From Patescibacteria group bacterium (lineage in GTDB: Bacteria > Patescibacteriota > UBA1384 > XYA2-FULL-43-10 > 1-14-0-10-43-13): a DNA stretch of 64,000 nt. The notes below the pieces were generated by a model. The model saw only the letters and a program-made list of their open reading frames with translations. It was not told where the DNA came from and searched no databases. The stretch lies in the NCBI GenBank assembly GCA_041671645.1, contig JBAZBD010000001.1, forward strand, positions 479,234 to 543,233, written 5' to 3'. This document shows positions 5,702 through 47,346 of this stretch, one piece after another (position 1 is the first letter of the stretch; each line of letters starts with the position of its first letter). The position numbers were made by a program, and so were the translations under genes.

Positions 5702-7432
5702 ATGGAAGATCCTATTGAAATAAAAGTGCCGAGCCCGATGAAAGGCTCAGGCATAAAGCGCAAGAAGTGGATGCTCTGGTCTATTGTCGGCGTAGCTGTT
5801 ATCGCGCTAGGCGGATCTGCATACGCTTTTCGCGGGTCTATCTCGGATTGGATCAAGAAAGATGCACCTGTCGTCTCGACTACCTCATCAACTGAAACAC
5901 CCGCTGCTACCTCTGAAGTCACTGACGTTACGCCGACAACACCAGCCACAACCAGTACAGAAATTGTGCCAATTGTTGACGCCGGGGTGACATGGCAGAC
6001 ACCAACCAAATTGGCTGATTTGAAATTGTTTAAATCTGGTGGCGATTTCGAACCGAGTGATGTCGCCTATTATCAGGTTGCCACATTTTCAGCTGGTGGA
6101 TCATTAATTGTTGGCGAGGTAGCATGTGGTCCTGGCGGCCTTTGCTACTATCATTTCAAGAAAGGTGCAGATGGAGTGTATAATTATCTCACAAAACATT
6201 CATCAGACTCGGATTCTCTGAGCGTCTCTAAATATATTGCGACTGTAGTAAATATCGATTCTACTACGAGCTATGCTTCCATCAGTTCTCCCGACCAAAT
6301 CGCAACTGAGAAAAATGTAGTCCTGAAGAGAGCTTGGACAGAGACTTGGTACTCTTCGCTTGTATCTCCTACAAAGATCGCCACGACAAGTTATGGCGAA
6401 ATATTTCGCGTTGCCACTCAACCAACAGCCGCAACTGCTGAGACATCAGCACAATATATTACTTACTACTTGAAACATGCTGATGGGTTGGTTATAGAAT
6501 ATCGTTTGTCTGATAACTTAATGACCGACGATAGCGTGGCCCTGGTCACTTTCACAGGATTAGCCAAGAATACTGAAAAGTACTTTGCTTCGATTATTGC
6601 ATCCCATTGTGGCTCCGGATCGGGGGTATCAATCCTGAGCGACGTTTCAAATATCACCACTCGTCTGAAAGATGCTGGTGTTGCTGACAACGGCAGCAGG
6701 ATTTATTACTTTTCGAGTAACGACGATCTGGCTTTGACGCAGGCCTATACGACATATTCAAACGGTCGAGATGCTGCCAATACGATCACCAAAGAGGCAT
6801 TCCTGGCCAAAAATCCAGTTTTCATCTGGAAAAATCCATTCTCTGATTACGAGACATTCTTCAAACAGGAATTTGCGCCGCTTGGCGAATGTGGCAAGCC
6901 AGTCGTATACCTTTATCCAACCAAAACTACCCAAGTTTCTGTAAACGTCGGAGCTAAGATTACCAAAAGTGAGCCAGCGTATGGAAAAGGCTGGAACGTT
7001 TTGGCCGATCCATCGGGGAAGCTTACCTTGAATAATGTTGTTTACCCAAATCTATTCTGGGAGGGGATTGGCAAGGGAGAATACCCACAAATCTCATCCG
7101 GTTTTGTGGTTAAGAAAGCCGACATCGCGAATACATTAAAAGCACACTTAGCTAAGCTCGGATTAAACAGTCAGGAAAGCGCCGACTTTATGGAGTATTG
7201 GCTGCCCAAGATGCCTGCTACCCCCTATACTCGACTCTCCTGGTTTGGCACAAGTCAAATGGATAGATTGGCTCCTCTGACAGTTTCTCCCAAGCCTGAC
7301 AGTGTAATTCGTATCTTCCTTGATTTTGAAGGATTGAACGCGCCGATTAGCTTGCCAGAGCAGAAACTTAAGTCTATTGAACGTAAGGGCTTCACGGTCG
7401 TAGAGTGGGGTGGATTGCTCAGAGGCAATTAA
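5702..7432 (+). CDS. Membrane-anchored extracellular protein of unknown function (Ser/Thr/Pro-rich linker)
   Basis: Single N-terminal TM ([21 protein letters not shown]), then a [28 protein letters not shown] linker and a ~480-aa domain with no recognised motif. AAGGAGG RBS. Confidence 0.6.
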
Positions 7433-7450
7433 TAAAAGAAACAAGAGAAA

Positions 7451-7476
7451 GTGTCCCGACTAGTCGGGACACTTTT
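7451..7476 (+). terminator. Rho-independent terminator
   Basis: Perfect 10-bp inverted repeat GTGTCCCGAC-TA-GTCGGGACAC followed by TTTT. Confidence 0.85.
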
Positions 7477-7485
7477 CGAACAAAA

Positions 7486-7798: not shown

Positions 7799-10711
7799 AT
7801 GAGTTTCAAAAAGATCGATTCTAGATTAAATCTGCCACTTGAAGAAGAAAACATTCTTAAATTTTGGCGTGAAAATAATATTTTCAAACAAACCCTGGAA
7901 AAGGATTCACCAGAAGGCAATTTTGTCTTTTTCGAGGGTCCGCCCACTGCCAATGGTAAGCCTGGCATCCACCACGTACTCGCCAGATCGTTCAAAGATC
8001 TCTTCGCTCGATACAAAACGATGAAAGGATTTAATGTCAAACGCAAAGCTGGCTGGGACACTCATGGTCTGCCAGTAGAGCTTCAAGTCGAGAAGGAATT
8101 GGGGATTTCTGGCAAGGGACAAATTGAAGATATTGTGTCGGGAGACAAAAGGGCTTCAGTTGAGAAGTTCAACAAACTATGTCGCGAATCAGTCTGGAAG
8201 TACAAAGAGGAGTGGGAAAAATTGACTGAGAGAATGGCTTATTGGGTAGATATGGAAGATCCGTACATTACCTATGAACCAAAATATATCGAAAGCGTCT
8301 GGAGCTTGATCGGAGAAATCGACAAAAAAGGTCTATTGTATAAGGGCCACAAGGTTGTGCCATATTGCCCTCGTTGTGGAACTGCGCTTTCTTCTCATGA
8401 AGTAGCTCAGGGATATCAGAATATCAAGGAAGAATCCGTATACGTCAAGATAAAGTCGAAGAAAGAAGATGTATTTTTCCTGGTCTGGACTACTACGCCT
8501 TGGACGCTCGCTGGCAACGCCGCTTTGGCTTTTAGCCCAAACGTTGAGTATGCTCGGGCAAAATTAAACAATGAGGAATATATTATTGCTCTCAATCGCG
8601 TGGAAGCTGTTCTCGGCGCAGAGGCTGAAATTGTAGAGAAGGGCCTGGACGGAGAGGCTATTATCGAGCGATATAATTGTGGCGAGGAGCCTGATTACGA
8701 GGCAATTTATGCGGATGGTGAAGGATATAGTGAGGCGGGCGAGCGGGCTTATCAGTTGATCACTGCCGATTATGTTTCTGACCATGATGGTACAGGAATA
8801 GTTCATATAGCGCCTGCTTTTGGTGCTGATGATTATATCTATGGGTTTCAGCAAAACCGAATTAAGGTTTTGAAGACGGTGGACGAGAAAGGTACTGAGA
8901 TGGCTGGTGCAGGCAAGGGCAAATTTGTGAAAGATGCCGATAATGATGTCAAAGAAGATTTACGAGCGAGGGACATATTATTCAAAGTAGAATCAGTCAA
9001 ACACGATTATCCATTCTGTTGGCGCTGTGATTCTCCACTTATTTATATGGCCAGGGATTCTTGGTATATCGCGATGAGCAAGGTTCGCGAAGAGCTTTTG
9101 AAAAACAATGAAGATATCAATTGGAATCCAGGATATTTGAAAAATGGCAGATTCGGGAATTGGCTAGAGAATATTCAGGACTGGGCGATTTCTAGAGACC
9201 GATATTGGGGAACTCCATTGCCCATCTGGGAGTGTGATAAATGCCAGAAGTATAAGGTCGTTACTTCTCTCGAAGAAATCAAGAATGTTGAGCCACACAA
9301 GCCAGAAATTGACGGAGTAATATTTGATTGTGAATGTGGCGGCAAGATGAAGCGAACGCCGGAAGTTATGGATGTTTGGCTTGACTCTGGCGCTATGCCA
9401 TATGCTCAATATCATGTTCCTTTTGAGAATGTCGAGTTGCAAAAAAGCCAGTTCCCAGCAGACTTTATCTGCGAAGCTGTCGACCAAACGAGAGGTTGGT
9501 TCTACACACTGTTAGCCCTATCCACCATCACTAGCAATACTTCTTCCTACAAGAATGTGATCTCTACTGGCCATGTTTTAGACGCTCATGGCAAGAAAAT
9601 GTCGAAGTCAAAGGGCAATATTATTGAGCCATCTGAAGCCTTTGGAAAGTATGGTGCAGACGTGATCCGCTACTTCTTTTACTCGACCAACCAGCCGGGC
9701 GAGCCAAAATTATTTAATGACAAAGAAGTTATCTCTGTCTCTCGCAATCTTTTCATGACACTTTGGAATGTCTATTCGTTTTTCATGACATACGCCTCAA
9801 TTGATGGATGGAAACCGGATAAGGTCGAAACTCAAAAGTCGAAAGTCAAAAGTCCGATGGTTGAGGTTGAAAGTGTACTCGACGAGTGGATCTTGGCAAA
9901 ACTACAGGAGTTGATCAACCAGGTCAGCGAAGGACTCGATAAGTTTGATCCCTACAAGCCGAGCAATCAGATCATCGATTTTGTTGGTGAGCTTTCAACC
10001 TGGTATGTCCGACGTTCTCGCAGGAGATTTTGGAAAAGCGAGAGTGATTCAGACAAGGAGAGCGCTTATCACACTTTGTATTACGTTTTGATTTCGCTAA
10101 CCAAGATTTTGGCTCCTATGGCTCCAATGTTTGCTGAGACTGTCTACCAAGGGTTGCGAGACGAAAGCGATCCAGAGTCGGTTCACCTGACGGATTTCCC
10201 AAATCAATCAAAGTTTGACCAGAAAATATTGGATGAAATGTCAGAAGCAAGAAATATTGTAGAAGAGGGCTTGTCAAAACGCGCTGAAGCCAAGATCAAA
10301 GTTCGTCAACCGTTAAATTCTATCTCAACTGCAGTTACATTGAGACCTGAGTTTGCTGAGATTATCCTAGAAGAGGTAAATGTTAAAAAAGTTATCGCCA
10401 AGGATTCTGGCGGGACTGAATTAGATATCAATATCACCCCTGAACTCAAATTGGAAGGATTGGCGAGAGAGCTAGTCAGAAGTATTCAGGCTTTGCGAAA
10501 AAACGCTGGATTTGAGGTCGAGAACCGTATCGAAGTGCTATATGACACTGATTCTGAGGAGCTTCTCGAAACCTTCGAAAAATTTCATGACCTGATCTCC
10601 CGTGAAGTGCTGGCCGTATCAATTAAATCTAACCGGAGTGATAGCGGATATTCGGAAGACTTGTTGATTGATGGCGCGAGTATATGGATAAATGTCTCGA
10701 AAACAAATTAA
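7799..10711 (+). CDS. ileS: Isoleucyl-tRNA synthetase (type 2)
   Basis: PPTANGKPGIHHVLARSFKD (HxGH class I motif), KMSKSKGN, zinc-binding C-terminal region, 970 aa. Confidence 0.95.
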   Translation: MSFKKIDSRLNLPLEEENILKFWRENNIFKQTLEKDSPEGNFVFFEGPPTANGKPGIHHVLARSFKDLFARYKTMKGFNVKRKAGWDTHGLPVELQVEKELGISGKGQIEDIVSGDKRASVEKFNKLCRESVWKYKEEWEKLTERMAYWVDMEDPYITYEPKYIESVWSLIGEIDKKGLLYKGHKVVPYCPRCGTALSSHEVAQGYQNIKEESVYVKIKSKKEDVFFLVWTTTPWTLAGNAALAFSPNVEYARAKLNNEEYIIALNRVEAVLGAEAEIVEKGLDGEAIIERYNCGEEPDYEAIYADGEGYSEAGERAYQLITADYVSDHDGTGIVHIAPAFGADDYIYGFQQNRIKVLKTVDEKGTEMAGAGKGKFVKDADNDVKEDLRARDILFKVESVKHDYPFCWRCDSPLIYMARDSWYIAMSKVREELLKNNEDINWNPGYLKNGRFGNWLENIQDWAISRDRYWGTPLPIWECDKCQKYKVVTSLEEIKNVEPHKPEIDGVIFDCECGGKMKRTPEVMDVWLDSGAMPYAQYHVPFENVELQKSQFPADFICEAVDQTRGWFYTLLALSTITSNTSSYKNVISTGHVLDAHGKKMSKSKGNIIEPSEAFGKYGADVIRYFFYSTNQPGEPKLFNDKEVISVSRNLFMTLWNVYSFFMTYASIDGWKPDKVETQKSKVKSPMVEVESVLDEWILAKLQELINQVSEGLDKFDPYKPSNQIIDFVGELSTWYVRRSRRRFWKSESDSDKESAYHTLYYVLISLTKILAPMAPMFAETVYQGLRDESDPESVHLTDFPNQSKFDQKILDEMSEARNIVEEGLSKRAEAKIKVRQPLNSISTAVTLRPEFAEIILEEVNVKKVIAKDSGGTELDINITPELKLEGLARELVRSIQALRKNAGFEVENRIEVLYDTDSEELLETFEKFHDLISREVLAVSIKSNRSDSGYSEDLLIDGASIWINVSKTN

Positions 10712-12430: not shown

Positions 12431-13048
12431 ATGGCACCAAAAGAACCAAAACAAGAACTCGAAGAAGAAATCAAAGTTGACGAATCTGCTGAATCAAAGC
12501 AGTTTTTGACCTTGAAGCAGACTGGTGAACGCAACTGGTATGTGATTCATACCTATTCTGGATATGAGGAGCAAGTTGCCGATTCTTTGAAACAGAGAAT
12601 CGAATCCATGAACATGGAAGATAAGATCTTCGATGTTATCGTGCCAAAAGAAAAACAGATTGAAATCAAAAACGGTAAGCGCAAAACTGTCGAAAAGAAG
12701 ATTTTCCCTGGTTATGTCCTTGTTGATATGATTGTTACTGATGACTCTTGGTATGTCGTCCGAAATACGCCGAATGTTACTGGCTTTATTGGTTTCGGTG
12801 TTCGTCCTACCCCAATGTCAAAGGAAGAAATTGATCGCATCAAGAAGAGAATGGGCGTCGAAGAGCCAAAATATCAGATTGATTTCCGAGTTAATGATTT
12901 GGTCAAAATTACCGATGGAGCTCTCAAGGGTTTCGAAGGTAAGATTGAAGAAATTGACCAGAACAAAGGCAAGATCAAGGTCTTGGTTAATATGTTTGGT
13001 CGCGAGACCCCAGTAAATCTAGACTTTTTACAAGTTGTGAAAATATAA
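12431..13048 (+). CDS. nusG: Transcription termination/antitermination factor NusG
   Basis: WYVIHTYSGYE (NGN domain) and a C-terminal KOW motif (VKITDGALKGFEGKIEEID). The ATG at 12431 follows the secE stop. Confidence 0.9.
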   Translation: MAPKEPKQELEEEIKVDESAESKQFLTLKQTGERNWYVIHTYSGYEEQVADSLKQRIESMNMEDKIFDVIVPKEKQIEIKNGKRKTVEKKIFPGYVLVDMIVTDDSWYVVRNTPNVTGFIGFGVRPTPMSKEEIDRIKKRMGVEEPKYQIDFRVNDLVKITDGALKGFEGKIEEIDQNKGKIKVLVNMFGRETPVNLDFLQVVKI

Positions 13049-13105
13049 TAATATAGGATTCGAGGTTCAAAGACGCTTCTACTTTAGACCCTCCAAAGCA
13101 AAATC

Positions 13106-13531
13106 ATGGCAAAAGCAATAAAAGCAGTTATCAAATTACAATGTCCAGCAGGTAAAGCAAATCCTGCACCTCCAGTCGGCCCAGCACTTGGTCAGCATGG
13201 TTTGAATATCATGGAATTCTGCACCAAGTTCAACGAGGCTACTAGGGAAAAGGGCGACTTCATCATTCCTGTAGAGATTACGGTTTATGAAGATAGAACT
13301 TATACCTTCATTCTGAAGCAGCCACCCGCAGCCGTATTGGTTATGAAAGCCGTTAAGGCCGCTAAGGGCAGCGACAACTCCAAGAAAAATAAGGTTGGCA
13401 AGATTACTCAAGCTCAGCTCGAAGAAATCGCAAACACAAAAATGTCAGATCTAAACGCAAATGACATCGAAGCGGCCAAGAAGATCATCGCCGGTACAGC
13501 TCGAAGCATGGGCGTTGAAGTAGAGAAATAA
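13106..13531 (+). CDS. rplK: 50S ribosomal protein L11
   Basis: [30 protein letters not shown]. Confidence 0.95.
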
Positions 13532-13570
13532 ACTTCTTTTAACTTCATACATAATATGATAAAACAAAAG

Positions 13571-13609
13571 AACCCCCTCCGCCAGCTGGCGGATCGGGGA
13601 TTCTTTTTG
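13571..13609 (+). terminator. Rho-independent terminator after rplK
   Basis: CCCCTCCGCCAG/CTGGCGGATCGGGG palindromic stem followed by ATTCTTTTT. Confidence 0.75.
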
Positions 13610-13677
13610 TAGAGATGTACTGACGTTGACCAGAGAAAGCGAAAGGAGGGGCAACACTTTTCCAATCTTCGCCGGTA

Positions 13678-15576
13678 TTGATCTTACTTATTCATGATAG
13701 CCAAAATGAAGTCAAAATGTCAACATTGAACAGAATAATCATACAAAGTCATAACAAATATCCTTTCAGGGAGCTGATTTCTTCTCTACTTGATTTTGGA
13801 TATGAAAGAGAACAGGACGAAATCAAAAGCGGTTACTTCGGGATCTCAGGAGGAGTAATCAAAATTTTTCCTGTTAACGATAAAGATATTTACCTCGTCG
13901 AATTCTTTGGCGATGAGGTTGATGCCATGTATATACTTCGCGATGGCAAGCAGGAAAAGTTTTTTGGCAGCTTAGTAATTGAAAAAAATATCGTCAAGTT
14001 ATCAGATGGAAGCATATTGTCACCCGAAAGTTATGCAGTCCATGAAGATTATGGCATTGGCCAGTTTCGCAACATTGAGACATTGCTCTTGCCAGATGGC
14101 GAACAAGTAAAATACATAAATTTTATTTATCTAAATGAAGAAGTATTACGTGTGCCTGAAAATCAGATAGATAAATTGTCGCGCTATATCGGTGTGGGAC
14201 AGCGAAAACCGAAATTGAACAGACTCGGTAGCGTCGCCTGGAAGAATACATATAAGAGAACCTACGAAAACGCATTGCTCCTAGCCAGAGAATTGCTGAC
14301 AGTTTATGCCAAAAGGCAAATTGCTGAGAAGAAGAAAATGATAATCAATACGGAATGGGATACCCTGGCTCGTAAAACCTTCGATTTCACTGAAACCGTC
14401 GACCAAATGAATGCTATTGAAAGTGTATATGCCGACCTCTCTGCTGATGTGCCTTCGGACAGATTGATTTGTGGCGACGTTGGCTTCGGCAAGACTGAGG
14501 TAGCTCTTAGAGCGGCGGTCCAAGCGGTAGCAAATGGTTATCAGGTTGCCATGCTAGTACCTACAACGATATTGGCAGAACAACATTACATAAATTTCGT
14601 TCGCAGACTCGCTCATACTCCAATCCGGGTAGGTCATTTGAGCCGTTTTGTCTCTGACGAACAGAGCAAAGAGACGGTCAAAGGTTTGGCCGACGGTAGC
14701 GTGGATATTGTAGTTAGTACTCACAAGCTTATTAGGTCTGAAATCAAGTTTAAAAATTTGGGGCTCTTGGTGATTGATGAGGAGCAAAAATTTGGAGTCA
14801 AGGATAAGGAGAAGCTCAAGGATTATCGCTCAAACATAGATTGCTTGACTCTGACTGCCACACCGATCCCAAGGACGATGTATATGGCCCTGTCTGGAGT
14901 CAGAAGTATATCTCAAATATCCTCGATTCCGGAGGGAAGAAGAAGCGTAGAAACAGAGATAGCAAAGTATTATGAAACCACAATCAAGACATACATTGAT
15001 CGTGAAATTGAGAGAAAAGGGCAGATTTACTTCTTGCATAATCGAGTCCAGTCAATCGGCGGGACCAAGCGAATGTTGTCGAAACTTTACCCATCTCTAA
15101 ATATAGAGATCGCGCACGGGCAGATGCCGGAGCGTCTTTTGGCCAAAAGGATGATCGATTTTACGGAAGGGAAAATAGATATTTTGGTCTGCTCCACGAT
15201 CATTGAAAGCGGTATTGATCTGCCTAACGTCAATACTTTGATTGTTGAGGAATCAGACCGATTTGGTCTATCTCAACTTTATCAAATACGTGGAAGGATC
15301 GGTCGAAGCACTCGACAATCATACGCACTTTTCACTTACAAAAATAAGAAAATGACAAATAATGCGGTCAAGCGACTTGAAGCTCTGTCTCACAATACTG
15401 AGCTCGGTACGGGGTTCGAAATTGCATTATCCGATTTGGAAATTAGGGGAGGCGGGAATATCTTGGGCAAGGAACAGCATGGCAGTATGGAGGCGGTAGG
15501 ATTGATGCTCTACTCGAAACTATTGAAACTAGCCGTTGATAGGCTGAAAGAGGGAAATCTGTTAGAATTAGCTTAA
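13678..15576 (+). CDS. mfd: Transcription-repair coupling factor Mfd, short form lacking the N-terminal UvrB-homology domains
   Basis: CarD/TRCF RNAP-interacting domain (YAVHEDYGIGQF), SF2 helicase motifs (GDVGFGKTEVAL, DEEQKFG, TATPIPRT, QIRGRIGR), C-terminal TRCF domain. Only 632 aa; the start could also be 13717. Confidence 0.85.
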   Translation: MILLIHDSQNEVKMSTLNRIIIQSHNKYPFRELISSLLDFGYEREQDEIKSGYFGISGGVIKIFPVNDKDIYLVEFFGDEVDAMYILRDGKQEKFFGSLVIEKNIVKLSDGSILSPESYAVHEDYGIGQFRNIETLLLPDGEQVKYINFIYLNEEVLRVPENQIDKLSRYIGVGQRKPKLNRLGSVAWKNTYKRTYENALLLARELLTVYAKRQIAEKKKMIINTEWDTLARKTFDFTETVDQMNAIESVYADLSADVPSDRLICGDVGFGKTEVALRAAVQAVANGYQVAMLVPTTILAEQHYINFVRRLAHTPIRVGHLSRFVSDEQSKETVKGLADGSVDIVVSTHKLIRSEIKFKNLGLLVIDEEQKFGVKDKEKLKDYRSNIDCLTLTATPIPRTMYMALSGVRSISQISSIPEGRRSVETEIAKYYETTIKTYIDREIERKGQIYFLHNRVQSIGGTKRMLSKLYPSLNIEIAHGQMPERLLAKRMIDFTEGKIDILVCSTIIESGIDLPNVNTLIVEESDRFGLSQLYQIRGRIGRSTRQSYALFTYKNKKMTNNAVKRLEALSHNTELGTGFEIALSDLEIRGGGNILGKEQHGSMEAVGLMLYSKLLKLAVDRLKEGNLLELA

Positions 15577-35375: not shown

Positions 35376-36494
35376 ATGAGTTTCAAATTGATCAAAAAAT
35401 TAGACAACGGTGTTCGCGTTGGCGAGCTTACGACGCCTCATGGTGCTATCGAGACGCCCTTTTTCATGCCGGTTGGTACGGTAGGAAGCGTCAAATCTGT
35501 TTCGCCTTGGGAGCTAGAAACTCTTGGCGCGCAGATTGTGCTTTCCAATACTTATCATCTCTATCTTCGCCCAGGCGAGAAATTGGTCAAAGACCTCGGC
35601 GGACTTCACAAGTTCATGGGCTGGGACAAGCCAATTCTGACTGATTCGGGCGGATATCAGGTCTTTAGCTTGGCCAAGAACTCGGATTTGGTCAAAATTA
35701 CCGAGGACGGAGTAGAGTTCAAGTCTCATCTGGACGGCTCGAAGCATTTCTTCACCCCAGAGAAGGTGATTGATATCCAGCTCGATCTTGGTGTCGACAT
35801 ACTGATGCCGCTTGACGTTTGTCCTTCGGGCACGGCGAGCAAGGAAGAGATCGAAGAAGCGGTACGACTGACAATTGCTTGGGCCAAACGAGCCAAAGTA
35901 TATTTTGAATCAAAGGTCTCTGGCCTCCCATCTGGCAAGAGGCCGATGCTCCACGGAATCGTGCAAGGTGGGTTAGATAAAGATCTACGCAAATACTGCG
36001 CCGAGGAACTCATCAAATTAGATTTTGACGGATATTCTGTCGGCGGCCTGGCCGTTGATCTGGAAACTCGCGAGATGTGGGATACTGTTAAGCTGATGGG
36101 GGAGATACTACCGGAAAATAAACAGCGTTATCTTATGGGCGTCGGTACGCCAGATGATATCATCACCGCTACCAAGCTGGGCATGGACATGTTTGATTGT
36201 GTCTTGCCGACGCGACTGGCTCGCCATGGCGCGGTTTACGCGCCAGTCGAAAGTCGAAAGTCGAAAGTCGAAAATAAGAAATATGAACTCATGAATCTTT
36301 TGAATAACAAATTCAGAACCGATGGGGGAGTGATCGACGAAAATTGTGGCTGTGAAGGATGTAAGAGGGGACTGTCCCGTGCCTATATTTCCCACCTACT
36401 TCGCTCCAACGAAATTCTCGGCCTTCACCTAGCCAGCCTGCACAATCTCTGGCAGTACCTCGAACTCATGAGGAAATTGCGCAATAATGCCTAA
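35376..36494 (+). CDS. tgt: Queuine tRNA-ribosyltransferase (tRNA-guanine transglycosylase)
   Basis: PHGAIETPFFMPVGT, LTDSGGYQ, zinc site CGCEGC…H. Contains an in-frame (GTCGAAA)x4 repeat at 36246-36273. Confidence 0.95.
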   Translation: MSFKLIKKLDNGVRVGELTTPHGAIETPFFMPVGTVGSVKSVSPWELETLGAQIVLSNTYHLYLRPGEKLVKDLGGLHKFMGWDKPILTDSGGYQVFSLAKNSDLVKITEDGVEFKSHLDGSKHFFTPEKVIDIQLDLGVDILMPLDVCPSGTASKEEIEEAVRLTIAWAKRAKVYFESKVSGLPSGKRPMLHGIVQGGLDKDLRKYCAEELIKLDFDGYSVGGLAVDLETREMWDTVKLMGEILPENKQRYLMGVGTPDDIITATKLGMDMFDCVLPTRLARHGAVYAPVESRKSKVENKKYELMNLLNNKFRTDGGVIDENCGCEGCKRGLSRAYISHLLRSNEILGLHLASLHNLWQYLELMRKLRNNA

Positions 36495-36495
36495 A

Positions 36496-36548
36496 CCGGC
36501 GTGAGCGTGCGTGGAGAGGAGCGGCGTTTAATCACGCCGTTCTTTTCG
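36496..36548 (+). terminator. Rho-independent terminator after tgt
   Basis: CCGGCGTGA…TCACGCCG followed by TTCTTTTCG. Confidence 0.7.
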
Positions 36549-36605
36549 TGCATAGCGCTATATCTATAGTATGAGGCTGAGATTAAGCTGGCGTGAATCA
36601 CGCCC

Positions 36606-36634
36606 TTGACACACTATATATGGGATGCTATAAT
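36606..36634 (+). promoter_or_regulatory. Consensus sigma70 promoter P1 (TTGACA-17-TATAAT)
   Basis: Exact consensus hexamers with a 17-nt spacer. A perfect palindrome GGCGTGA-A-TCACGCC lies immediately upstream (36590-36604). Confidence 0.75.
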
Positions 36635-36640
36635 GCTTAG

Positions 36641-36830
36641 TTCTGAGGGTAGAGAAGAGCTCACCCCCAGAAGGAAAAAATTATACATCCTTTAGACTTT
36701 ACAGACTTTACGACTTCCGACTTCTCTTGCGGTAGCGTGCTGGTAGTAGCTCATGGGTACCCCCTCCACCTGTGAGACCACTATTATCAGCACAGTACCG
36801 CAAATCCAGCACGAATCACGAGTAAGGTGC
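36641..36830 (+). ncRNA. Candidate small RNA 1 (paralog A) with C-rich core CAUGGGUACCCCCUCCACCUGUG
   Basis: Downstream of P1, no ORF. Enclosing helices GCGGTA/TACCGC and GTGCTG/CAGCAC (36708-36792) present the core (36743-36765) in a loop. GACTT x4 period-8 repeat at 36694-36722. Confidence 0.5.
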
Positions 36831-36859
36831 TTGACAAAGTATTTACAACATGGTATAAT
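36831..36859 (+). promoter_or_regulatory. Consensus sigma70 promoter P2 (TTGACA-17-TATAAT)
   Basis: Exact consensus hexamers with a 17-nt spacer. Confidence 0.75.
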
Positions 36860-36865
36860 GTTCAC

Positions 36866-37110
36866 ATGACGATTGGAAATTGAATCGTCGCACCAAACAA
36901 TTTTCTTCACTTAAGTTTCTGCAATCAATCAACGCATACGAGGGTATGAGGGACGATAGATTGAAAGCATATACTACAAAAATGCAGCGGTAGTGTCCTG
37001 CATAATTCACTCTCTTGATTTATCAAGAGAACATGGGTACCCCCTCCACCCGTGTCGAGTTATGCAGAACAGTGCCGCTATTTTTAAACCGAAAGTTCGG
37101 TTTAAATAAT
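36866..37110 (+). ncRNA. Candidate small RNA 2 (paralog B) with C-rich core CAUGGGUACCCCCUCCACCCGUG
   Basis: Downstream of P2, no ORF of more than 15 codons. 5' hairpin GACGATTGG…CAATCGTC. Enclosing helix CTGCATAA/TTATGCAG (36997-37067) with inner 9-bp hairpin TCTCTTGAT-TT-ATCAAGAGA. Core at 37032-37054. 3' hairpin AAACCGAA-AG-TTCGGTTT at 37086-37103. Confidence 0.5.
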
Positions 37111-37296
37111 GGATTACAGATTTTCCAAATTACAGATTACGAATATCCTGAATCCTTAACAGCGACACAAATAGTACTTTAACAACTATATATAGACATT
37201 GTCTCAGCGAAGAGCTGCCAACTATTGGCATCTGCTTGCTGAGACAAAAAAACGAACCCAGCCCGATCCGAATAGGACGGAATTTACATAAGGAGA

Positions 37297-38271
37297 ATGG
37301 CTATGAAAAAGTTATTCACCATCACTTTGACCGCCCTTATCATGTTGGCGGCTGGACTATCACCTGTTTTCGGACAGGTTCCTGCGGACACAACCCCCGC
37401 AACAATCAATTCTATTCCCGTAGATGCAACGAAAATTGAACCTGTCGGAAACGGCAAGCTCAAAATTACGAAGAAAGATGGAGATATTGTTTATATCACC
37501 ATCAGCAATACGCAGAATAACATTTCACCGAAGGCCCAAGTGGCACCACCGGTAATCCAGAAAGTTTACATCACCAAGCGGACTCAGGTTCGCAAGGTGA
37601 GCAATTCTCGACCGGCAGCGAAAGCTCAGCCGAAACCGCAAAGGCAGGCGCTCGTTGCGCCAGAGAAAAAGGAGAAGAATATGGAAAATGTAGCTGTAAC
37701 AGCAATCGTCCTCCCTTGGTGGGGTTGGATAATCGTAGGGATCGCAATTTTCGCAATACTGCGACCACGCGAGTTCAGGACTGCCGTCCGAGCGCTGACC
37801 AATGTAAACCACTTGATCGATGACCGAATTTCGGTCCATCGCCAGGGGTTCGGGTCGCTTACGACTCACACCACTGCGGATTCGGAGACTCGAATTTATG
37901 ATCCCATCGAAAAAACTGAGCTTGAGTGCGAAGCACTCCAAGTGAAGTACGAGAGTCGGGCGCGCATTGTGGAGGCGAAAGCCGATGCAGACATCGCGCG
38001 GAGCTTGCTCCGAGCGAAGATGCTTAAGTCGCTCGAAAGCGACGACACCACTCCTGCACCGCGCCGGCTCGTGCCGGACACTCACAGCGACGAAGAAATG
38101 CGAAGGGCGCGCCGTGAAAAGCGTGCACACGATCGCGAGGAAGCGGAGAAAAAGATCATTGCTGACGAAAAGGCGGCAGAGGATGCCAGGAAGGCAACCG
38201 AAGCCGCTAAGTTAGCGGCAAAGAACAAAAACAAAGGGAACCAGCCACCAGCTGGAGCACAAGTAACTTAA
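37297..38271 (+). CDS. Secreted/membrane protein with charged coiled-coil C-terminus (GC-rich gene)
   Basis: Signal peptide MAMKKLFTITLTALIMLAAGLSPVFGQ. Internal TM WWGWIIVGIAIFAIL. C-terminal RRAR/EEAEKK charged region. AAGGAGA RBS. GC elevated, which generates the spurious antisense ORF 37525..38130. Confidence 0.6.
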   Translation: MAMKKLFTITLTALIMLAAGLSPVFGQVPADTTPATINSIPVDATKIEPVGNGKLKITKKDGDIVYITISNTQNNISPKAQVAPPVIQKVYITKRTQVRKVSNSRPAAKAQPKPQRQALVAPEKKEKNMENVAVTAIVLPWWGWIIVGIAIFAILRPREFRTAVRALTNVNHLIDDRISVHRQGFGSLTTHTTADSETRIYDPIEKTELECEALQVKYESRARIVEAKADADIARSLLRAKMLKSLESDDTTPAPRRLVPDTHSDEEMRRARREKRAHDREEAEKKIIADEKAAEDARKATEAAKLAAKNKNKGNQPPAGAQVT

Positions 38272-38399: not shown

Positions 38400-38780
38400 A
38401 TGGTCAATATTGCTGAAGATCAGCAGGTAAAAGATATCATAGAGAAGGATATTTTTGTTTTGCTAAAAGCAGAAAATCTTTCTGACGAGCAAAAAGCTAT
38501 CCTCATGGCGAAGCTTACGGATGAGGCAAATCTACGGATCCTGATCCATGTTGATGAAATGCTTGCCGACTCTGCCAAGACAGAGTTCAAGCGAATAGTG
38601 AGCGAAGGCGATAGCGAAATGTTATCCGCCTTTTTTGTTGCCAACAATATCGATATTGCGATGATATTTGCTGACATTGCTCTGCAACTGAAAGCGGAAG
38701 TGGTAGCATACAACAATTACCTGACAACTTCTGCCAAAGTTTTGGCTACCTCTGCAAAGCAAGTTAAGGGAGACAAATAA
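38400..38780 (+). CDS. Hypothetical protein (126 aa)
   Basis: ACGGAGGGAG RBS. Stop overlaps the start of the giant gene. Confidence 0.55.
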   Translation: MVNIAEDQQVKDIIEKDIFVLLKAENLSDEQKAILMAKLTDEANLRILIHVDEMLADSAKTEFKRIVSEGDSEMLSAFFVANNIDIAMIFADIALQLKAEVVAYNNYLTTSAKVLATSAKQVKGDK

Positions 38781-44772: not shown

Positions 44773-47346
44773 ATGGCAACAAGTTCAAATTATTACAACT
44801 CTACTTCTCAATCACGGAACACTATATCGGCTACCTCAACCCAGGCAGATATGTCCGGGTGGTTTTGGTTTTTCGGCACGACTATCGTCCTTACAGCTCT
44901 GGTTTTGATTGTCGTCTGGATTCGCAAGATGTTGATTCGAAAGTCACAGGTCCAGATCACCCGTGACTGGATAATGTTCAAGGTGATGACGCCGAAGGAG
45001 CGCCATGCAGAGGAGGATGACCAGCGCAAGAATTTTCAGGAGATGTTAGGAGTAATTGAGCCGTTTTATGCCAATCTTCACGCGCTTTTTGACAACAATT
45101 TGTTCGCCAAAATGTTCAAACGCCAGACCCATATATCTCTCGAGCTGGTGGCCAAGGAAGGTCGGATATTCTTCTATGTCGGCTGTTCGAAAAAGATCTC
45201 TTCGATAGTTCTGAAGAATCTCCAGGCCCAATATCCTCACTCTGAGGTTCGCGAGGAGAAGGATTATTCAATTTTTCCAGACAAGCCGCTCAAAATGGAT
45301 GTGACCAGCGTCACCCTGACACGGCGTTACATGTTTCCGATCAAAACTTACAAAATGCTTGAAGAGGATCCGCTCAACGCGATCACCAATTCACTCTCGC
45401 GATTGACAGAGAATGAATTGGCCGGCATCCAGATATTGGTACGACCAACCTCAGGGTTATGGCGATTGGCGGGCGAGCGAACTGCCTATAACATTCAACA
45501 TGGCAAATCTCGAGTCTCATATTCCAACACTTGGTGGGTCAGAGCAGGAGAGTCATTCTTCAATTTTGTTAGCAGCTCGGCTAGCATGGTGGGCGGCAAC
45601 AAGGAGCAGAACGAGACAGAGTATCAGAGCTCGATGAGAAAATTGACTCCAATGCAGGAGAACACAGTCAAGCTACTCGGCGAGAAGGCAGCCAAGATCG
45701 GATTTGAATGCCAAATCAGAATTGTCGGAGTAGGGGAGACCGACAAGGACGCCGAGAATGTGACGAAGAATATTGCTGCCTCTTTTAACCAGTTCAACGC
45801 ACCTGACTCCAATGGACTTTGGAAAAAGGAACCAAAAAAGAAAAACGAAGAATTGGCCAACTATATTTTCCGAGTATTTTCATCTGGTAGTGTCTCAATA
45901 TTAAATACCGAGGAGCTTGCTTCTCTTTATCATTTCCCAAATCGTTATATTGATACTCCAAATATCGTCTGGCTGTTGTCTCGCAAAGAGCCGCCACCAG
46001 CCAATTTGCCCTCCGAAGGTACTATCGTTGGTAAATCGCTCTATCGAGGTCAGGAGAAATTCATTCGTATCAAGGAAGCAGATCGTCTACGCCACATCTA
46101 CCAAATCGGTAAAACTGGTGTGGGTAAAACTGTTATGTTCCAAAACATGATTCGTCAGGATATCGAAGAGGGTAAGGGTGTTTGCTATCTTGATCCAAAT
46201 GGTGACGCCGCCGAGTGGATATTGAATCACATTCCGAAGGAACGCGCTGAGGATGTCATCTACTTCAATCCGGCTGATAGAGAGAGGCCATTTGGTTTGA
46301 ATATGCTGGAGTGGAAGACGCCAGAGCAGAGAGACTTCTTGGTCCAGGAATCTATCCAAATATTTTACAAATTGTTTGACCCCAATCAGACTGGTATGGT
46401 TGGTCCGCAGTTTGAGCACTGGATGAGAAATGCGGCATTGACTTTGATGATGCATCCAGACGGCGGCACTATCATCGATATCCCACGCCTCTTTACTGAT
46501 CCAGATTTTGAAAAGGATCGTGTCAAATATGTGACAGATCCTGTGGTTAAATCTTTCTGGGAAAAGCAGATGGCCAAGACGGCTGATTTCCACAAATCTG
46601 AAATGTTGAATTACTTCACCTCCAAGTTTGGTAGATTCATGACCAACGACATGATGAGGAATATTCTAGGTCAGACCAAGTCATCCTTTGATTTCCGCGA
46701 GATCATGGACACCAAGAAAATTTTGATCTGCAATCTCTCCAAGGGATTGATCGGCGAAATTAATGCCTTCTTGCTTGGTATGGTGATCGTATCCAAGATT
46801 GCCATGGGTGCCTTCTCCCGTCAGGAAATTCCCGAGAATGAACGTGTTCCTTTTTACCTCTATGTTGATGAGTTTCAAAACTTTATTACCGATGTTTTCG
46901 CCACGATTTTGTCAGAGTCTCGTAAATACAAACTGAGCTTGAATATCACCAACCAGTACATCGAGCAGTTAGATGAGAAGATTCGTGCCGCTGTCGTGGG
47001 CAACGCTGGTACTTTGATTGCCTTCCGCATGGGCGCCGCTGACGCAGAATTCTTCCAGAAGGAGTTTGACCCGCTCAAGCCTGATGATCTGACAAATATT
47101 GACAAGTATAATTTCTACATTAAGATGCTGATCGACGGCGCGCCAACCCGACCTTTCAATGGTCAGAGCATCTGGCCAGAGGACTTTGAAGGCAATCCCA
47201 AGCTAGGGACCGCGATTAAAGAGCTCTCAAGGCTGAAGTATGGCAAACCCAGAGAAATCATAGAGACGGAGATATTGGAGAGATCGAAGGTTGACAGTAT
47301 TGATCTGCCAGGTCTCAAATCAACTGGCGGAGCACCGACGTCATAA
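44773..47346 (+). CDS. Membrane-anchored FtsK/HerA/TraD-superfamily ATPase (type IV secretion coupling-protein-like), paralog 1
   Basis: N-terminal TM (WFWFFGTTIVLTALVLIVVWI). Walker A GKTGVGKT. Walker B …LYVDEFQNF. HerA/FtsK-type arginine-finger/sensor SESRKYKLSLNITNQY. Conserved block …YHFPNRYIDTPNIVW… shared with ORF 49205. Confidence 0.7.
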   Translation: MATSSNYYNSTSQSRNTISATSTQADMSGWFWFFGTTIVLTALVLIVVWIRKMLIRKSQVQITRDWIMFKVMTPKERHAEEDDQRKNFQEMLGVIEPFYANLHALFDNNLFAKMFKRQTHISLELVAKEGRIFFYVGCSKKISSIVLKNLQAQYPHSEVREEKDYSIFPDKPLKMDVTSVTLTRRYMFPIKTYKMLEEDPLNAITNSLSRLTENELAGIQILVRPTSGLWRLAGERTAYNIQHGKSRVSYSNTWWVRAGESFFNFVSSSASMVGGNKEQNETEYQSSMRKLTPMQENTVKLLGEKAAKIGFECQIRIVGVGETDKDAENVTKNIAASFNQFNAPDSNGLWKKEPKKKNEELANYIFRVFSSGSVSILNTEELASLYHFPNRYIDTPNIVWLLSRKEPPPANLPSEGTIVGKSLYRGQEKFIRIKEADRLRHIYQIGKTGVGKTVMFQNMIRQDIEEGKGVCYLDPNGDAAEWILNHIPKERAEDVIYFNPADRERPFGLNMLEWKTPEQRDFLVQESIQIFYKLFDPNQTGMVGPQFEHWMRNAALTLMMHPDGGTIIDIPRLFTDPDFEKDRVKYVTDPVVKSFWEKQMAKTADFHKSEMLNYFTSKFGRFMTNDMMRNILGQTKSSFDFREIMDTKKILICNLSKGLIGEINAFLLGMVIVSKIAMGAFSRQEIPENERVPFYLYVDEFQNFITDVFATILSESRKYKLSLNITNQYIEQLDEKIRAAVVGNAGTLIAFRMGAADAEFFQKEFDPLKPDDLTNIDKYNFYIKMLIDGAPTRPFNGQSIWPEDFEGNPKLGTAIKELSRLKYGKPREIIETEILERSKVDSIDLPGLKSTGGAPTS

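Follow-up and report, generated by a model that had tools for sequence, protein, structure and literature searches.

Within the window, by which we mean the whole 64-kb stretch of DNA that was analysed, a gene-free locus adjoins a type IV secretion-like (T4SS-like) cluster; it contains two promoters and two related structured RNA domains, and a further hairpin belongs to the leader of the cluster's first gene (Table 1). The preliminary description of this DNA had called the locus ORF-free, and this is borne out: the longest ORF has 72 aa, none of the four longest ORFs has a Pfam match at E ≤ 1, the small ORFs are not kept in relatives, and no protein homology of the region was detectable. ARAGORN identified no tRNA or tmRNA in the 64-kb window. 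The gene neighbourhood of the cluster recurs in relatives (cited below by L numbers), and the host genomes of the RNA are Saccharibacteria/Patescibacteria MAGs. In all 15 genomes the locus lies beside the T4SS-like cluster (DUF5663, TraG/DUF8128), and in 13 of the 15 it is upstream of, and co-oriented with, the gene for the signal-peptide protein; the 857-aa protein of the window is 68% identical to the DUF8128 protein of L029 (BLASTP). The TM7x transcriptome paper (10.1101/2022.03.25.485537) reports that the T4SS-like cluster is maintained across Saccharibacteria.

Table 1. Features of the locus and the adjacent cluster, with positions in the window.
Feature	Positions	Strand	Basis or remark
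Promoter P1, TTGACA-17-TATAAT, TG before −10	36606..36634	+	scores 12/12
5' hairpin of RNA 1, UUCUGAGGGU...ACCCCCAGAA, then purine-rich SD-like GAAGGAAAAAA	36641..36680	+	hairpin in MFE structure
Degenerate 9-nt tandem repeat spacer in RNA 1 leader, AGACTTTAC x2.7	36694..36716	+	TRF
Domain 1: helix P1 (7 bp, 2x2 internal loop, 13 bp) stacked on hairpin P3; lacks P2 in this genome	36728..36802	+	
Loop L3 of domain 1, ACCCCCUCC, exposed C-rich anti-SD-like motif	36759..36767	+	unpaired in MFE structure
Promoter P2, TTGACA-17-TATAAT, extended −10 TGGTATAAT	36831..36859	+	scores 12/12
5' hairpin of RNA 2, GACGAUU-GGAAAUUG-AAUCGUC	36868..36889	+	MFE structure
Domain 2: three-way junction of P1, P2 (37011-37030) and P3 (37031-37055)	36986..37079	+	
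Loop L3 of domain 2, ACCCCCUCC	37039..37047	+	unpaired in MFE structure; invariant across genomes
U-tract (37081-37085) directly after helix P1 of domain 2, then small hairpin AAACCGA-AAG-UUCGGUUU	37080..37107	+	putative RNA 3' end
Long-range hairpin UGUCUCAGC...GCUGAGACA in leader of downstream gene	37199..37247	+	fold z = −5.4
Downstream gene, 324-aa signal-peptide/TM protein, first of T4SS-like cluster	37297..38271	+	ORF list
126-aa DUF5663-like protein gene, T4SS-like cluster	38400-38780		BLASTP to DUF5663 proteins
1728-aa protein, then 265-aa protein, within T4SS-like cluster	between 126-aa and 857-aa genes		
857-aa TraG/DUF8128 coupling protein	44773-47346		Pfam TraG-D_C match

The two promoters had been singled out as the best in the window, and they are indeed its only perfect TTGACA-17-TATAAT sites; with one mismatch allowed there are three matches in the 64 kb, against 0.44 expected. 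Across the relatives, a promoter equivalent to P1 is found upstream of domain 1 in 14/14 genomes, with a spacer of exactly 17 nt and at least 10 of 12 matching positions. Promoter P2 is kept at ≥11/12 in 10/10 genomes that have room for it between the domains, and it is missing from genomes whose domains lie 13-19 nt apart. Hexamers and 17-nt spacing are kept in the relatives although the surrounding spacers have diverged. Directly 3' of the −10 hexamer of promoter P1, the element UUCUGAGGGU/.../CUCAGGAGGAA is kept in most relatives and missing from L012 and L016; the tandem-repeat spacer of the RNA 1 leader is not kept. Hairpins equivalent to the 5' hairpin of RNA 2 come after promoter P2 in L006, L008, L012, L014 and L020.

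The repeated unit, a domain of 64-101 nt, is closed by a long helix (P1); a side hairpin (P2) is optional, and a further hairpin (P3) displays a single-stranded 9-nt loop, NCCCCCUCC, the sole invariant part of the scaffold. The 23-mer CATGGGTACCCCCTCCACCYGTG, which occurs exactly twice in the window (zero occurrences expected by chance), corresponds to hairpin P3, with the stem CAUGGGU/ACCYGUG and the 9-nt loop ACCCCCUCC; the single Y difference between the two cores swaps a G-U pair for G-C in the stem. Of the positions given earlier for this core, that of copy 2 (37032-37054) is right, whereas copy 1 had been placed at 36743-36765 and lies at 36752-36774. The enclosing helices that had been described as different in the two copies are present, but both are the homologous P1, GCGGUAGyGUsCUG...CAGmACAGUrCCGC; likewise, the hairpin reported for copy 2 exists but is the 8-bp P2, not one of 9 bp. 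Mismatches in the internal loop of helix P1 vary (G.G, G.U, A.A, C.A or fully paired), and a K-turn or other motif at this site was rejected. The GGGTACCC palindrome in the core, earlier suggested as a site of kissing dimerisation, was also rejected: it is not conserved (relatives carry GGUUCCC, GGCUCCC or GGCCCCC), and its GGGU forms the 5' side of stem P3. A third CCCCTCCGCC site, at 13574 of the window, is an ordinary terminator hairpin.

Compared with shuffled sequences, the folds of both transcripts are much more stable (z = −4.8 and −8.1). The core is present in relatives, where we identified 27 domain copies in 15 genomes (Tgt proteins 59-100% identical); the loop sequence CCCCUCC is invariant in 27/27 copies. 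Folded alone, every one of the 27 copies takes the same shape, with the CCUCC motif exposed in a hairpin loop; this makes it structurally plausible that the loop could serve as an anti-Shine-Dalgarno (anti-SD) sequence or in titration, as had been proposed.

That the copies are paralogous structured RNAs was supported by covariance analysis. A covariance model (R1) built from copy-2 sequences only recovered every copy 1, including domain 1 of the window (32.2 bits, E 5.5e-5), and scored domain 2 at 100.7 bits on the + strand against 34.3 bits on the − strand. The two paralogue sets were aligned separately; a single MAFFT alignment of all 19 copies (A4) misplaced the inner part of helix P1 in copy 1. 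In the copy-1 alignment (A5), 16 of 28 pairs carry compensatory changes, with 95.7% of cells paired (25-55% in slid controls); the copy-2 alignment (A2) has compensatory (double) changes in 9 of 31 pairs and 96.4% of cells paired (33-48% in slid controls). None of 500 covariation shuffles reached the observed score. When all copies were pooled in an alignment fitted to the model, from which this pair count was taken, 27 of the 31 scaffold pairs had compensatory pair types. Frequent G-U pairs are seen on just one strand, and R1 scores the + strand 2-3 times higher than the − strand; because of the many G-U pairs and the scores of 100 versus 34 bits, we consider the strand settled as +.

The 3' end that is kept among relatives is helix P1 followed by a U-tract, which comes after the last domain in 14 of the 15 genomes (the exception is L029). 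A 3' hairpin, AAACCGAA/TTCGGTTT, had been noted for copy 2; its sequence is not conserved, and the small hairpin after the U-tract varies in sequence from genome to genome. L029, L030 and L031 carry both domains in one transcript, 13-19 nt apart, and L033 has only one domain. A terminator and a convergent gene come after the RNA in L030, which is why we regard the RNA as a stand-alone gene. The conserved promoters, the U-tract and the convergent flank in L030 are all features of the sequence, and they point to an independent transcription unit. We are highly confident that the locus is a real RNA gene. It encodes a previously uncatalogued small non-coding RNA family of Saccharibacteria; a search of the whole window against Rfam 15 at gathering thresholds returned no match.

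We infer that the RNA is expressed and acts in trans on mRNA targets as follows. In this genome the unit is duplicated, each copy having its own consensus sigma-70 promoter and a putatively protective 5' hairpin. Transcription from promoter P2 is predicted to end at helix P1 of domain 2 and the adjoining U-tract, giving an RNA 2 of ~220 nt rather than the ~240 nt suggested earlier. A discrete RNA 1 of ~190 nt, also suggested, is not predicted from the sequence, which has no terminator ahead of the second promoter; transcription from promoter P1 would probably read through to the same end and, barring processing, yield an RNA of ~445 nt with both domains. The exposed C-rich loops could then serve as seeds that pair in trans with GGAGGG-containing SD or 5'-UTR sequences of a set of mRNAs, and this pairing would block 30S binding and/or alter mRNA stability. 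An Hfq-type chaperone would not be required, as with actinobacterial 6C and firmicute RsaE/RoxS. Candidate targets would be genes of the adjacent T4SS-like cluster, several of which have GGAGGG-type ribosome-binding sites. If pairing is the mode of action, the loop mutation CCCCCUCC to GGGGGAGG would have an effect.

The loop is complementary to GGAGG(G) SD sequences, and it can be read as a seed for many fixed partners because the sole invariant element of the RNA is a single-stranded C-rich loop on a covarying scaffold; the same invariance means that covariation with a partner is not demonstrable. Strong SD sequences are present in few genes of the window. Duplex scans pointed to GGAGGG-type SD sequences of neighbouring cluster genes: among 46 start regions in the window, the DUF5663-like gene two genes downstream ranked second (ACGGAGGGAG, −13.7 kcal/mol), a result that is local and weak because the scans covered 64 kb of the ~868-kb genome plus flanks, and a 6-nt complement is easily found by chance. 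In relatives, GGAGGG-type SD sequences precede 8 of ~34 genes of the adjacent cluster versus 3 of ~104 other genes by our own gene classification, an enrichment that may simply mean stronger ribosome-binding sites in that cluster. On balance, we give even chances to a trans-acting small RNA (sRNA) whose C-rich loops pair with G-rich SD regions.

An invariant loop motif on a variable scaffold could also mark a protein-titrating sponge or decoy, in which the two identical C-rich loops would bind an RNA-binding protein, perhaps dimeric, whose usual sites are C-rich mRNA sequences, and the RNA would sequester or deliver that protein by analogy with CsrB/RsmZ and CsrA. Those RNAs likewise have a repeated hairpin with an invariant loop motif and a strong promoter. 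Two identical loops per RNA are equally typical of protein-titrating RNAs; the motif appears twice, in tandem and with fixed geometry, in one transcript in L029, L030 and L031; and the near-consensus promoters suggest a copy number high enough for titration. However, known sponges have many sites, whereas here there are two, or one in the single-domain L033, and the motif is C-rich instead of GGA, with no cognate protein known. A candidate C-rich-binding protein is not consistently encoded beside the locus in the neighbourhoods examined, and a motif that is a perfect SD complement is more simply explained by RNA-RNA pairing. We consider protein titration rather unlikely.

A role in cis, as a leader or attenuator of the secretion-cluster operon or a tandem riboswitch-like 5' leader, would also fit the conserved synteny with the downstream gene. 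In that case the downstream genes would be driven by promoters P1 and P2, and helix P1 of domain 2 with its U-tract would be a terminator regulated by a ligand, a protein or an RNA. The position and shared orientation in 13 of 15 genomes agree with this; moreover, the closing helix of the domain itself forms the terminator, the tandem homologous domains are reminiscent of tandem aptamers, and the interval between domain 2 and the gene has no perfect promoter. Nevertheless, the gene after the L030 RNA is convergent, which leaves this RNA without a target in cis, and in L033 a repeat-rich spacer of ~600 nt separates RNA and gene. The conserved nucleotides lie in a hairpin loop, unlike those of aptamers, which lie in junctions and internal loops, and the internal loops of helix P1 are not conserved; hairpin P2 can be dispensed with, and domain 1 lacks an expression platform. 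Placement upstream in the same orientation together with an expression platform, as expected of a riboswitch, is thus not constant. In addition, a separate conserved element of the leader lies between the RNA and the gene and has a motif of its own upstream: the conserved ACWTTAACAA (~37176-37186) precedes the long-range leader hairpin, and L005, L006, L008, L012, L016, L027 and L031 have the leader helix with sequences that covary. This hairpin is probably a separate element and not part of the sRNAs. Taken together, these observations make cis regulation unlikely.

The RNA's own 5' G-rich element (GAGGGU...GGAGGAA) could be the real, intramolecular partner of the loops. The RNA would then be a self-contained SD/anti-SD device whose 5' element pairs with its own loops or recruits 30S; it would mimic an anti-SD or serve as a decoy for 30S and so act on ribosomes, or it would switch between masked and open states. 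The GGAGGAA is complementary to the loop CCUCC, and with the 5' hairpin it is kept right where transcription starts in the majority of genomes, among them L033 with its one domain. Yet L012 and L016 lack the element and L014 and L020 have it in altered form, with no loss of the invariant loops, an RNA 2 initiated at promoter P2 would lack it, and the MFE folds, which exclude pseudoknots, hold the two elements apart; we regard this arrangement as improbable.

A DNA-level element, either an oriT-like or single-strand hairpin site for the TraG/T4SS-like machinery or a repeat/MITE, appears very improbable. The locus does adjoin a cluster with a TraG/VirD4-like coupling protein, and it contains long inverted repeats; however, conserved consensus promoters lie upstream of each copy and a U-tract downstream, the G-U pairs and the higher model score are confined to one strand, and no relaxase gene was seen. 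Searches with the covariance model over the window and 15 related loci (~270 kb) found one locus per genome, with one or two copies at each and none dispersed in the 64 kb and ~200 kb of related loci, and the 23-mer occurs only at its two sites in the window; a dispersed repeat (REP/MITE) was rejected on these grounds. A 19-mer scan of genome contigs gave five matches, of which four are chance matches inside GC-rich coding DNA, and 5 of 11 matches in a pattern scan of metagenomes are likewise due to chance. Finally, a degraded gene remnant or small ORFs can practically be dismissed: the reverse complement of the core resembles a ribosome-binding site with an 8-nt spacer and an ATG (read via GGTGGAGGGGGTACCCATG), and the minus strand has ORFs of 72 aa and 55 aa, but this ATG is found in the window and L005 only (relatives show ACG or TAT), ORFs and start codons are not conserved and the ORFs have no Pfam match, indels are not multiples of three, helix substitutions are compensatory, and no conserved start codon follows the SD-like GGAGG of the RNA 1 leader, where a well-spaced ATG occurs in L024 only and opens a frame of 23 aa.

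The genomes of Saccharibacteria and other CPR/Patescibacteria are tiny and encode few regulators that can be recognised, and Saccharibacteria live on Actinobacteria. We found no description of sRNAs in Saccharibacteria or CPR in the literature, and according to the TM7x transcriptome paper (10.1101/2022.03.25.485537) none has been validated. With its conserved promoters, covarying structure and invariant seed-like loop beside a T4SS-like cluster, the locus is a well-supported sRNA candidate, and the covariance model is directly usable for annotating the family in CPR genomes. If the RNA controls the cluster or a regulon of mRNAs with G-rich SD sequences, it would open a first way into the post-transcriptional control of gene expression in this radiation. 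Because the actinobacterial hosts use the C-rich loops of the 6C sRNA and the RNA displays such loops beside a TraG cluster, one might also imagine an epibiont-made mimic of host 6C that is exported to the host cell and reprograms host translation, which we think extremely doubtful; in a milder version, the RNA could be the first riboregulator of the secretion apparatus behind the epibiotic lifestyle.

Among known RNAs with related designs, the firmicute sRNAs of the RsaE/RoxS type repress translation through C-rich motifs in single-stranded loops that pair with SD sequences, and their 5' and 3' hairpins stabilise them in hosts that use RNase J/Y-type decay. The likeness to the present RNA would lie in C-rich loops directed against SD sequences and in 5' and 3' hairpins; these RNAs differ in motif (UCCC versus CCCCCUCC), fold and taxon. 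In Rfam scans at E ≤ 10, the loci of the window, L030 and L029 yielded only sub-threshold noise of miRNA/snoRNA-type hairpins, with no match to RsaE or 6C. Adjacent paralogous sRNA genes with their own promoters and an identical seed, diverged elsewhere, are likewise seen in OmrA/OmrB, PrrF1/PrrF2 and Qrr. The present family departs from such siblings in that its ancestral form seems to have been a single transcript of one domain or two (as in L033 and L029-L031), only some members of the clade carry the internal promoter, and RNA 1 lacks its own terminator.

The closest parallel in design is the 6C sRNA (B11/ncRv13660c) of Actinobacteria, likewise a small stand-alone RNA conserved in two C-rich hairpin loops. 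The 6C loops pair with G-rich sequences of ribosome-binding sites and 5' UTRs without Hfq or ProQ; 6C regulates secretion genes among others, represses dnaB and panD as well, and arrests growth when overexpressed (PMC6486639). The L3 loop of 6C in M. tuberculosis is UCCUCCCCCCCU, compared with NCCCCCUCC here. There is no sequence or covariance-model similarity between the two RNAs. 6C consists of two simple adjacent hairpins, whereas the present RNA has a long P1 helix or three-way junction and repeats the whole domain, and 6C belongs to high-GC Actinobacteria, whereas this RNA is found in Saccharibacteria (~45% GC). Unlike 6C, many genomes here place the two loops on two separately promoted RNAs. 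The resemblance is one of design only, in that C4-8UCC is exposed in both domains (in the one domain of L033), and the two RNAs have in common the duplicated C-loop arrangement, no obvious chaperone and a secretion-system context. If the proposed pairing in trans is true, the present family would be an independent example of the C-rich-loop strategy known from 6C and RsaE.

The 23-mer core, CATGGGTACCCCCTCCACCYGTG, occurs twice in the window, with no other occurrences even when three mismatches are allowed (0 expected). As the preliminary description had claimed, both predicted transcripts carry the core with a one-base difference; the position it gave for copy 2 was right, but copy 1 lies nine bases downstream of where it had been placed. 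Both transcripts fold far better than dinucleotide shuffles (z = -4.8 and -8.1), and in both folds the core is a hairpin whose 9-nt loop, ACCCCCUCC, is closed by the stem CAUGGGU/ACCYGUG; owing to the sole C/U difference between the copies, a pair that is G-U in one is G-C in the other. The enclosing helices, initially reported as different but compatible, exist but are homologous: in both copies the 5' strand reads GCGGUAGyGUsCUG... and the 3' strand ...CAGmACAGUrCCGC.

Relatives were collected from contigs of Tgt homologues and with one degenerate DNA pattern run over a metagenome collection (handles L005 to L033 denote related loci or genomes). The search of related genomes for the core, proposed at the outset, found the element in 15 distinct genomes with Tgt 59–100% identical. 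When 185,579 species genomes were scanned with a 19-mer of the core, the sole true match was a Candidatus Saccharibacteria MAG (L005); the other four matches were due to chance, inside GC-rich coding DNA. RNAalifold folded ten copy-2 sequences into a three-way junction of helix P1 (7 bp and then ~13 bp, separated by a small internal loop), the variable hairpin P2 and hairpin P3, which bears the C-rich loop; all 27 sequences folded singly share a common architecture, with a C-rich loop of 8–11 nt. Hairpin P2 is missing in copy 1 of the window, L006 and L024 and is thus dispensable. The mismatches in helix P1 vary (G.G, G.U, A.A, C.A or paired), ruling out a conserved motif there. In a model-fitted alignment, the loop is the sole element that never changes (CCCCUCC in 27/27 copies, CCCCCUCC in 25/27). 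The palindrome GGGTACCC, once suggested to mediate kissing dimerisation, is not conserved and sits in the P3 stem, and that idea was dropped.

In the copy-2 alignment, 96.4% of cells are canonical and 9 pairs changed on both sides, whereas slid controls were 33–48% paired and 0/500 shuffles reached the covariation score. A separate alignment of nine copy-1 sequences, which are more diverged, has compensatory changes at 16 of 28 pairs and is 95.7% paired, versus 25–55% in slid controls. Trained on copy 2 alone, a covariance model finds every copy 1 (E 7e-13 to 0.03), which establishes the paralogy of the two copies, and also all copies in more distant genomes; with covarying stems and a constant loop, the proposal of paralogous structured RNAs with a conserved core in covarying context held. 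The alignment of all 27 copies, which leans to the model structure, has 96.6% canonical cells and, at 27 of 31 pairs, types that differ on both sides. The + strand is the transcribed one: G-U pairs are frequent (RNAalifold, copy-2 alignment), and the copy-2 model scores window copy 2 at 100.7 bits on the + strand versus 34.3 on the - strand. The locus is very probably a genuine ncRNA gene.

Every genome has an ORF-free gap with a near-consensus promoter, a leader and one or two domains. L006/L024, L008/L012/L027, L014/L020, L016 and L032 resemble the window in having two domains separated by a second promoter. The domains of L029, L030 and L031 lie 13–19 nt apart behind a single promoter and therefore share one transcript. 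The most distant genome, L033, has a single domain; an ISL3-family transposase gene (DDE_Tnp_ISL3; 12984–14186, - strand) lies immediately upstream, and a rearrangement there might explain the lone domain. In several genomes extra genes intervene between tgt and the RNA, so the tgt linkage is incidental; the secretion-like cluster remains close. The assembly of the MAG of L005 and L011 is broken inside the RNA locus: L011 (CAZGJE010000046.1) ends 83 bp past tgt and L005 (CAZGJE010000002.1) begins within the RNA 2 leader. These breaks probably arose because short-read assembly collapses the duplicated domain, and MAGs may therefore under-represent the family.

Promoters P1 and P2 are exactly where they were first described and, as claimed, are the best in the 64-kb window, being its only perfect TTGACA-17-TATAAT matches; with one mismatch allowed there are 3 sites, versus 0.44 expected from shuffles. 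In 14/14 genomes promoter P1 has a spacer of exactly 17 nt and matches the hexamers at 10/12 positions or more; promoter P2 reaches at least 11/12 in the 10/10 genomes with room for it. The sequence around the promoters is not alignable between genomes, indicating that the hexamers are under selection. A U-tract directly follows the last domain in 14/15 genomes (the exception is L029), so the closing helix of that domain apparently doubles as a terminator stem. Most genomes have one more small hairpin after the U-tract, with a sequence that varies between genomes; the 3' hairpin originally noted for copy 2 (AAACCGAA/TTCGGTTT) exists as the window's form of it. Domain 1 is followed by a U-tract in no genome; genomes of the window clade have the promoter P2 -35 within ~30 nt after it. 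Based on this placement of U-tracts, we predict an RNA 2 of ~220 nt (36866 to ~37085) and a promoter P1 transcript of ~445 nt through both domains, unless processed. Both predicted transcripts start with a 5' hairpin. The RNA 1 hairpin is conserved, reading UUCUGAGGGU...CUCAGGAGGAA in most genomes, and precedes an SD-like purine run, after which the related loci have no conserved start codon.

Features of the RNA locus and its surroundings (window coordinates unless a related locus is named)
Feature	Position	Strand	Remarks
Promoter P1	36606-36634	+	TTGACA-17-TATAAT; TG ahead of -10
Promoter P2	36831-36859	+	TTGACA-17-TATAAT; TG ahead of -10
Core copy 1	36752-36774	+	23-mer scan
Core copy 2	37032-37054	+	23-mer scan
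Third conserved non-coding element	37176-37296		hairpin 37199-37247; between sRNA terminator and signal-peptide gene
Third element, relatives	L005 ~205-265; L006 ~7850-7985; L008 ~7365-7480; L016 ~13205-13320; L031 ~13425-13545		
Spacer repeats	36694-36716; 37110-37150; L012 11020-11100, 11385-11425; L016 12840-12900, 13240-13265; L027 ~4350-4420; L033 14690-14730		
rplJ, rplL, tgt	upstream of RNA locus		Pfam
Downstream gene 1			324-aa signal-peptide/TM protein
Downstream gene 2			126 aa; related to DUF5663 proteins
Downstream gene 3			1728-aa protein
Downstream gene 4			265-aa protein
Downstream gene 5			857-aa TraG/VirD4-like coupling protein; TraG-D_C above Pfam cut-off; 68% identity to relative's DUF8128 protein

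The third element consists of a conserved (G)YACWTTAACAAyATA followed by a long-range helix, UGUCUCAGCaa...uuGCUGAGACA (z = -5.4), which covaries from genome to genome (CUCAGC/GCUGAG, CUGAGC/GCUCGG, GUCAGGC/GCUCGAC) and surrounds an insert that varies from 45 to 190 nt; a CCAGCCCG...CGG hairpin comes after it, just 5' of the SD. The element resembles an independent structured 5' leader, or a promoter together with a leader, belonging to the first gene of the cluster. The intergenic spacers are rich in short degenerate tandem repeats that differ per genome (AGACTTTAC, TACAGAT(T/A), AGGATTC/AGAATTA, GTAA x7, AGTAGAA, AAATCAA); the TACAGAT type occurs in the window and L012 at differing positions. 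Because such repeats fill leaders and spacers, the length of the RNA locus is variable.

The window Tgt has an identical counterpart in a Patescibacteria MAG, and its closest relatives are CPR/Saccharibacteria proteins. Its gene (35376–36494) contains within the coding sequence a perfect 7-nt tandem repeat, AGTCGAA x4.1 (36245–36273), in an inserted stretch that the Pfam TGT profile lacks; homologues of Tgt in the clade are 345–527 aa long, and the gene therefore seems tolerant of variable repeat-derived inserts. The five downstream genes are the type IV secretion-like cluster that is reported to be maintained across Saccharibacteria (10.1101/2022.03.25.485537). Elsewhere, an ordinary intrinsic terminator, GAACCCCCTCCGCCAGCTGGCGGATCGGGGATTCTTTTT, separates two + strand genes at 13560–13620, and the CCCCTCCGCC within it is chance content unrelated to the sRNA family.

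Since an invariant single-stranded motif sits on a freely covarying scaffold, the loop resembles a seed region. CCCCCUCC is complementary to GGAGG(GGG), an extended Shine-Dalgarno sequence, and there is about an even chance that the loop is a seed for G-rich Shine-Dalgarno sites; as in 6C, the C-rich loops would base-pair with G-rich ribosome-binding sites of mRNAs. Most window genes have a weak or absent SD. In a loop duplex scan of 46 window start regions, the DUF5663-like gene two genes downstream ranked second (ACGGAGGGAG, -13.7 kcal/mol), although the complement is short. Across eight related loci, it is mainly the unknown-function and secretion-cluster genes adjoining the RNA that have GGAGGG-type SDs (8/~34 cluster genes versus 3/~104 others, a hand count with author-set gene classes over a fraction of each genome), a lead to targets that falls short of proof. 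Cluster genes (window 38400; L008, L014, L016, L029–L032) often share an extended RBS, (C/U)GGAGGGAA(A/U)AUG, and SDs are weak or absent in the housekeeping genes rplJ, rplL, tgt and pth of those loci. The additional G of the extended RBS matches the sRNA loop but has no match to the canonical 16S anti-SD partner.

An RNA that titrates a protein is a possible but unlikely alternative. Less likely still is a cis attenuator of the secretion-like cluster: conservation is centred on the loop, a separate conserved leader element is present, and in L030 a terminator and then the 3' end of a convergent gene come after the RNA, showing that the RNA can be a stand-alone gene with nothing downstream for cis regulation. 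We consider an internal SD/anti-SD or ribosome-directed role via the conserved 5' GGAGGAA improbable, and a DNA-level site for T4SS-like machinery, or an RNA that mimics host 6C and is exported into the host, highly improbable. The locus has short ORFs only (maximum 72 aa), none with a Pfam match at E≤1, in keeping with its first description as ORF-free; a coding remnant was rejected, and a coding sequence is scarcely credible.

The ncRNA gene also falls outside catalogued families: the covariance-model check proposed earlier matched no Rfam 15 family in the window at gathering thresholds, and scans of three loci at E≤10 gave sub-threshold hairpin noise only. tRNA and tmRNA were ruled out, as was a dispersed repeat, based on the 23-mer count and covariance-model searches. 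A minus-strand SD-plus-ATG reading of the core was rejected, as the ATG is present in the window and L005 only. We found no description of an sRNA in Saccharibacteria in the literature, and the TM7x transcriptome paper states that no sRNA had been validated (10.1101/2022.03.25.485537). The RNA, next to a secretion-like cluster, is a first well-supported sRNA candidate in Saccharibacteria.

Its closest functional precedent is actinobacterial 6C, and RsaE/RoxS of Firmicutes work in a similar way to 6C. 6C carries C-rich loops on two hairpins (L3 is UCCUCCCCCCCU); these loops pair, chaperone-free, with G-rich ribosome-binding sites in numerous mRNAs, those of secretion genes among them (PMC6486639). 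By analogy, the Saccharibacteria RNA would be a C-rich-seed regulatory sRNA, a known kind, working most like 6C and RsaE; however, it is a member of neither family, as there was no model match and scaffold and taxon differ. As a sibling pair the two RNAs resemble OmrA/B, whereas here the loci appear to form an evolutionary series from one domain (L033), to two in one transcript (L029–L031) and then to a pair of RNAs with a promoter each (the window clade).
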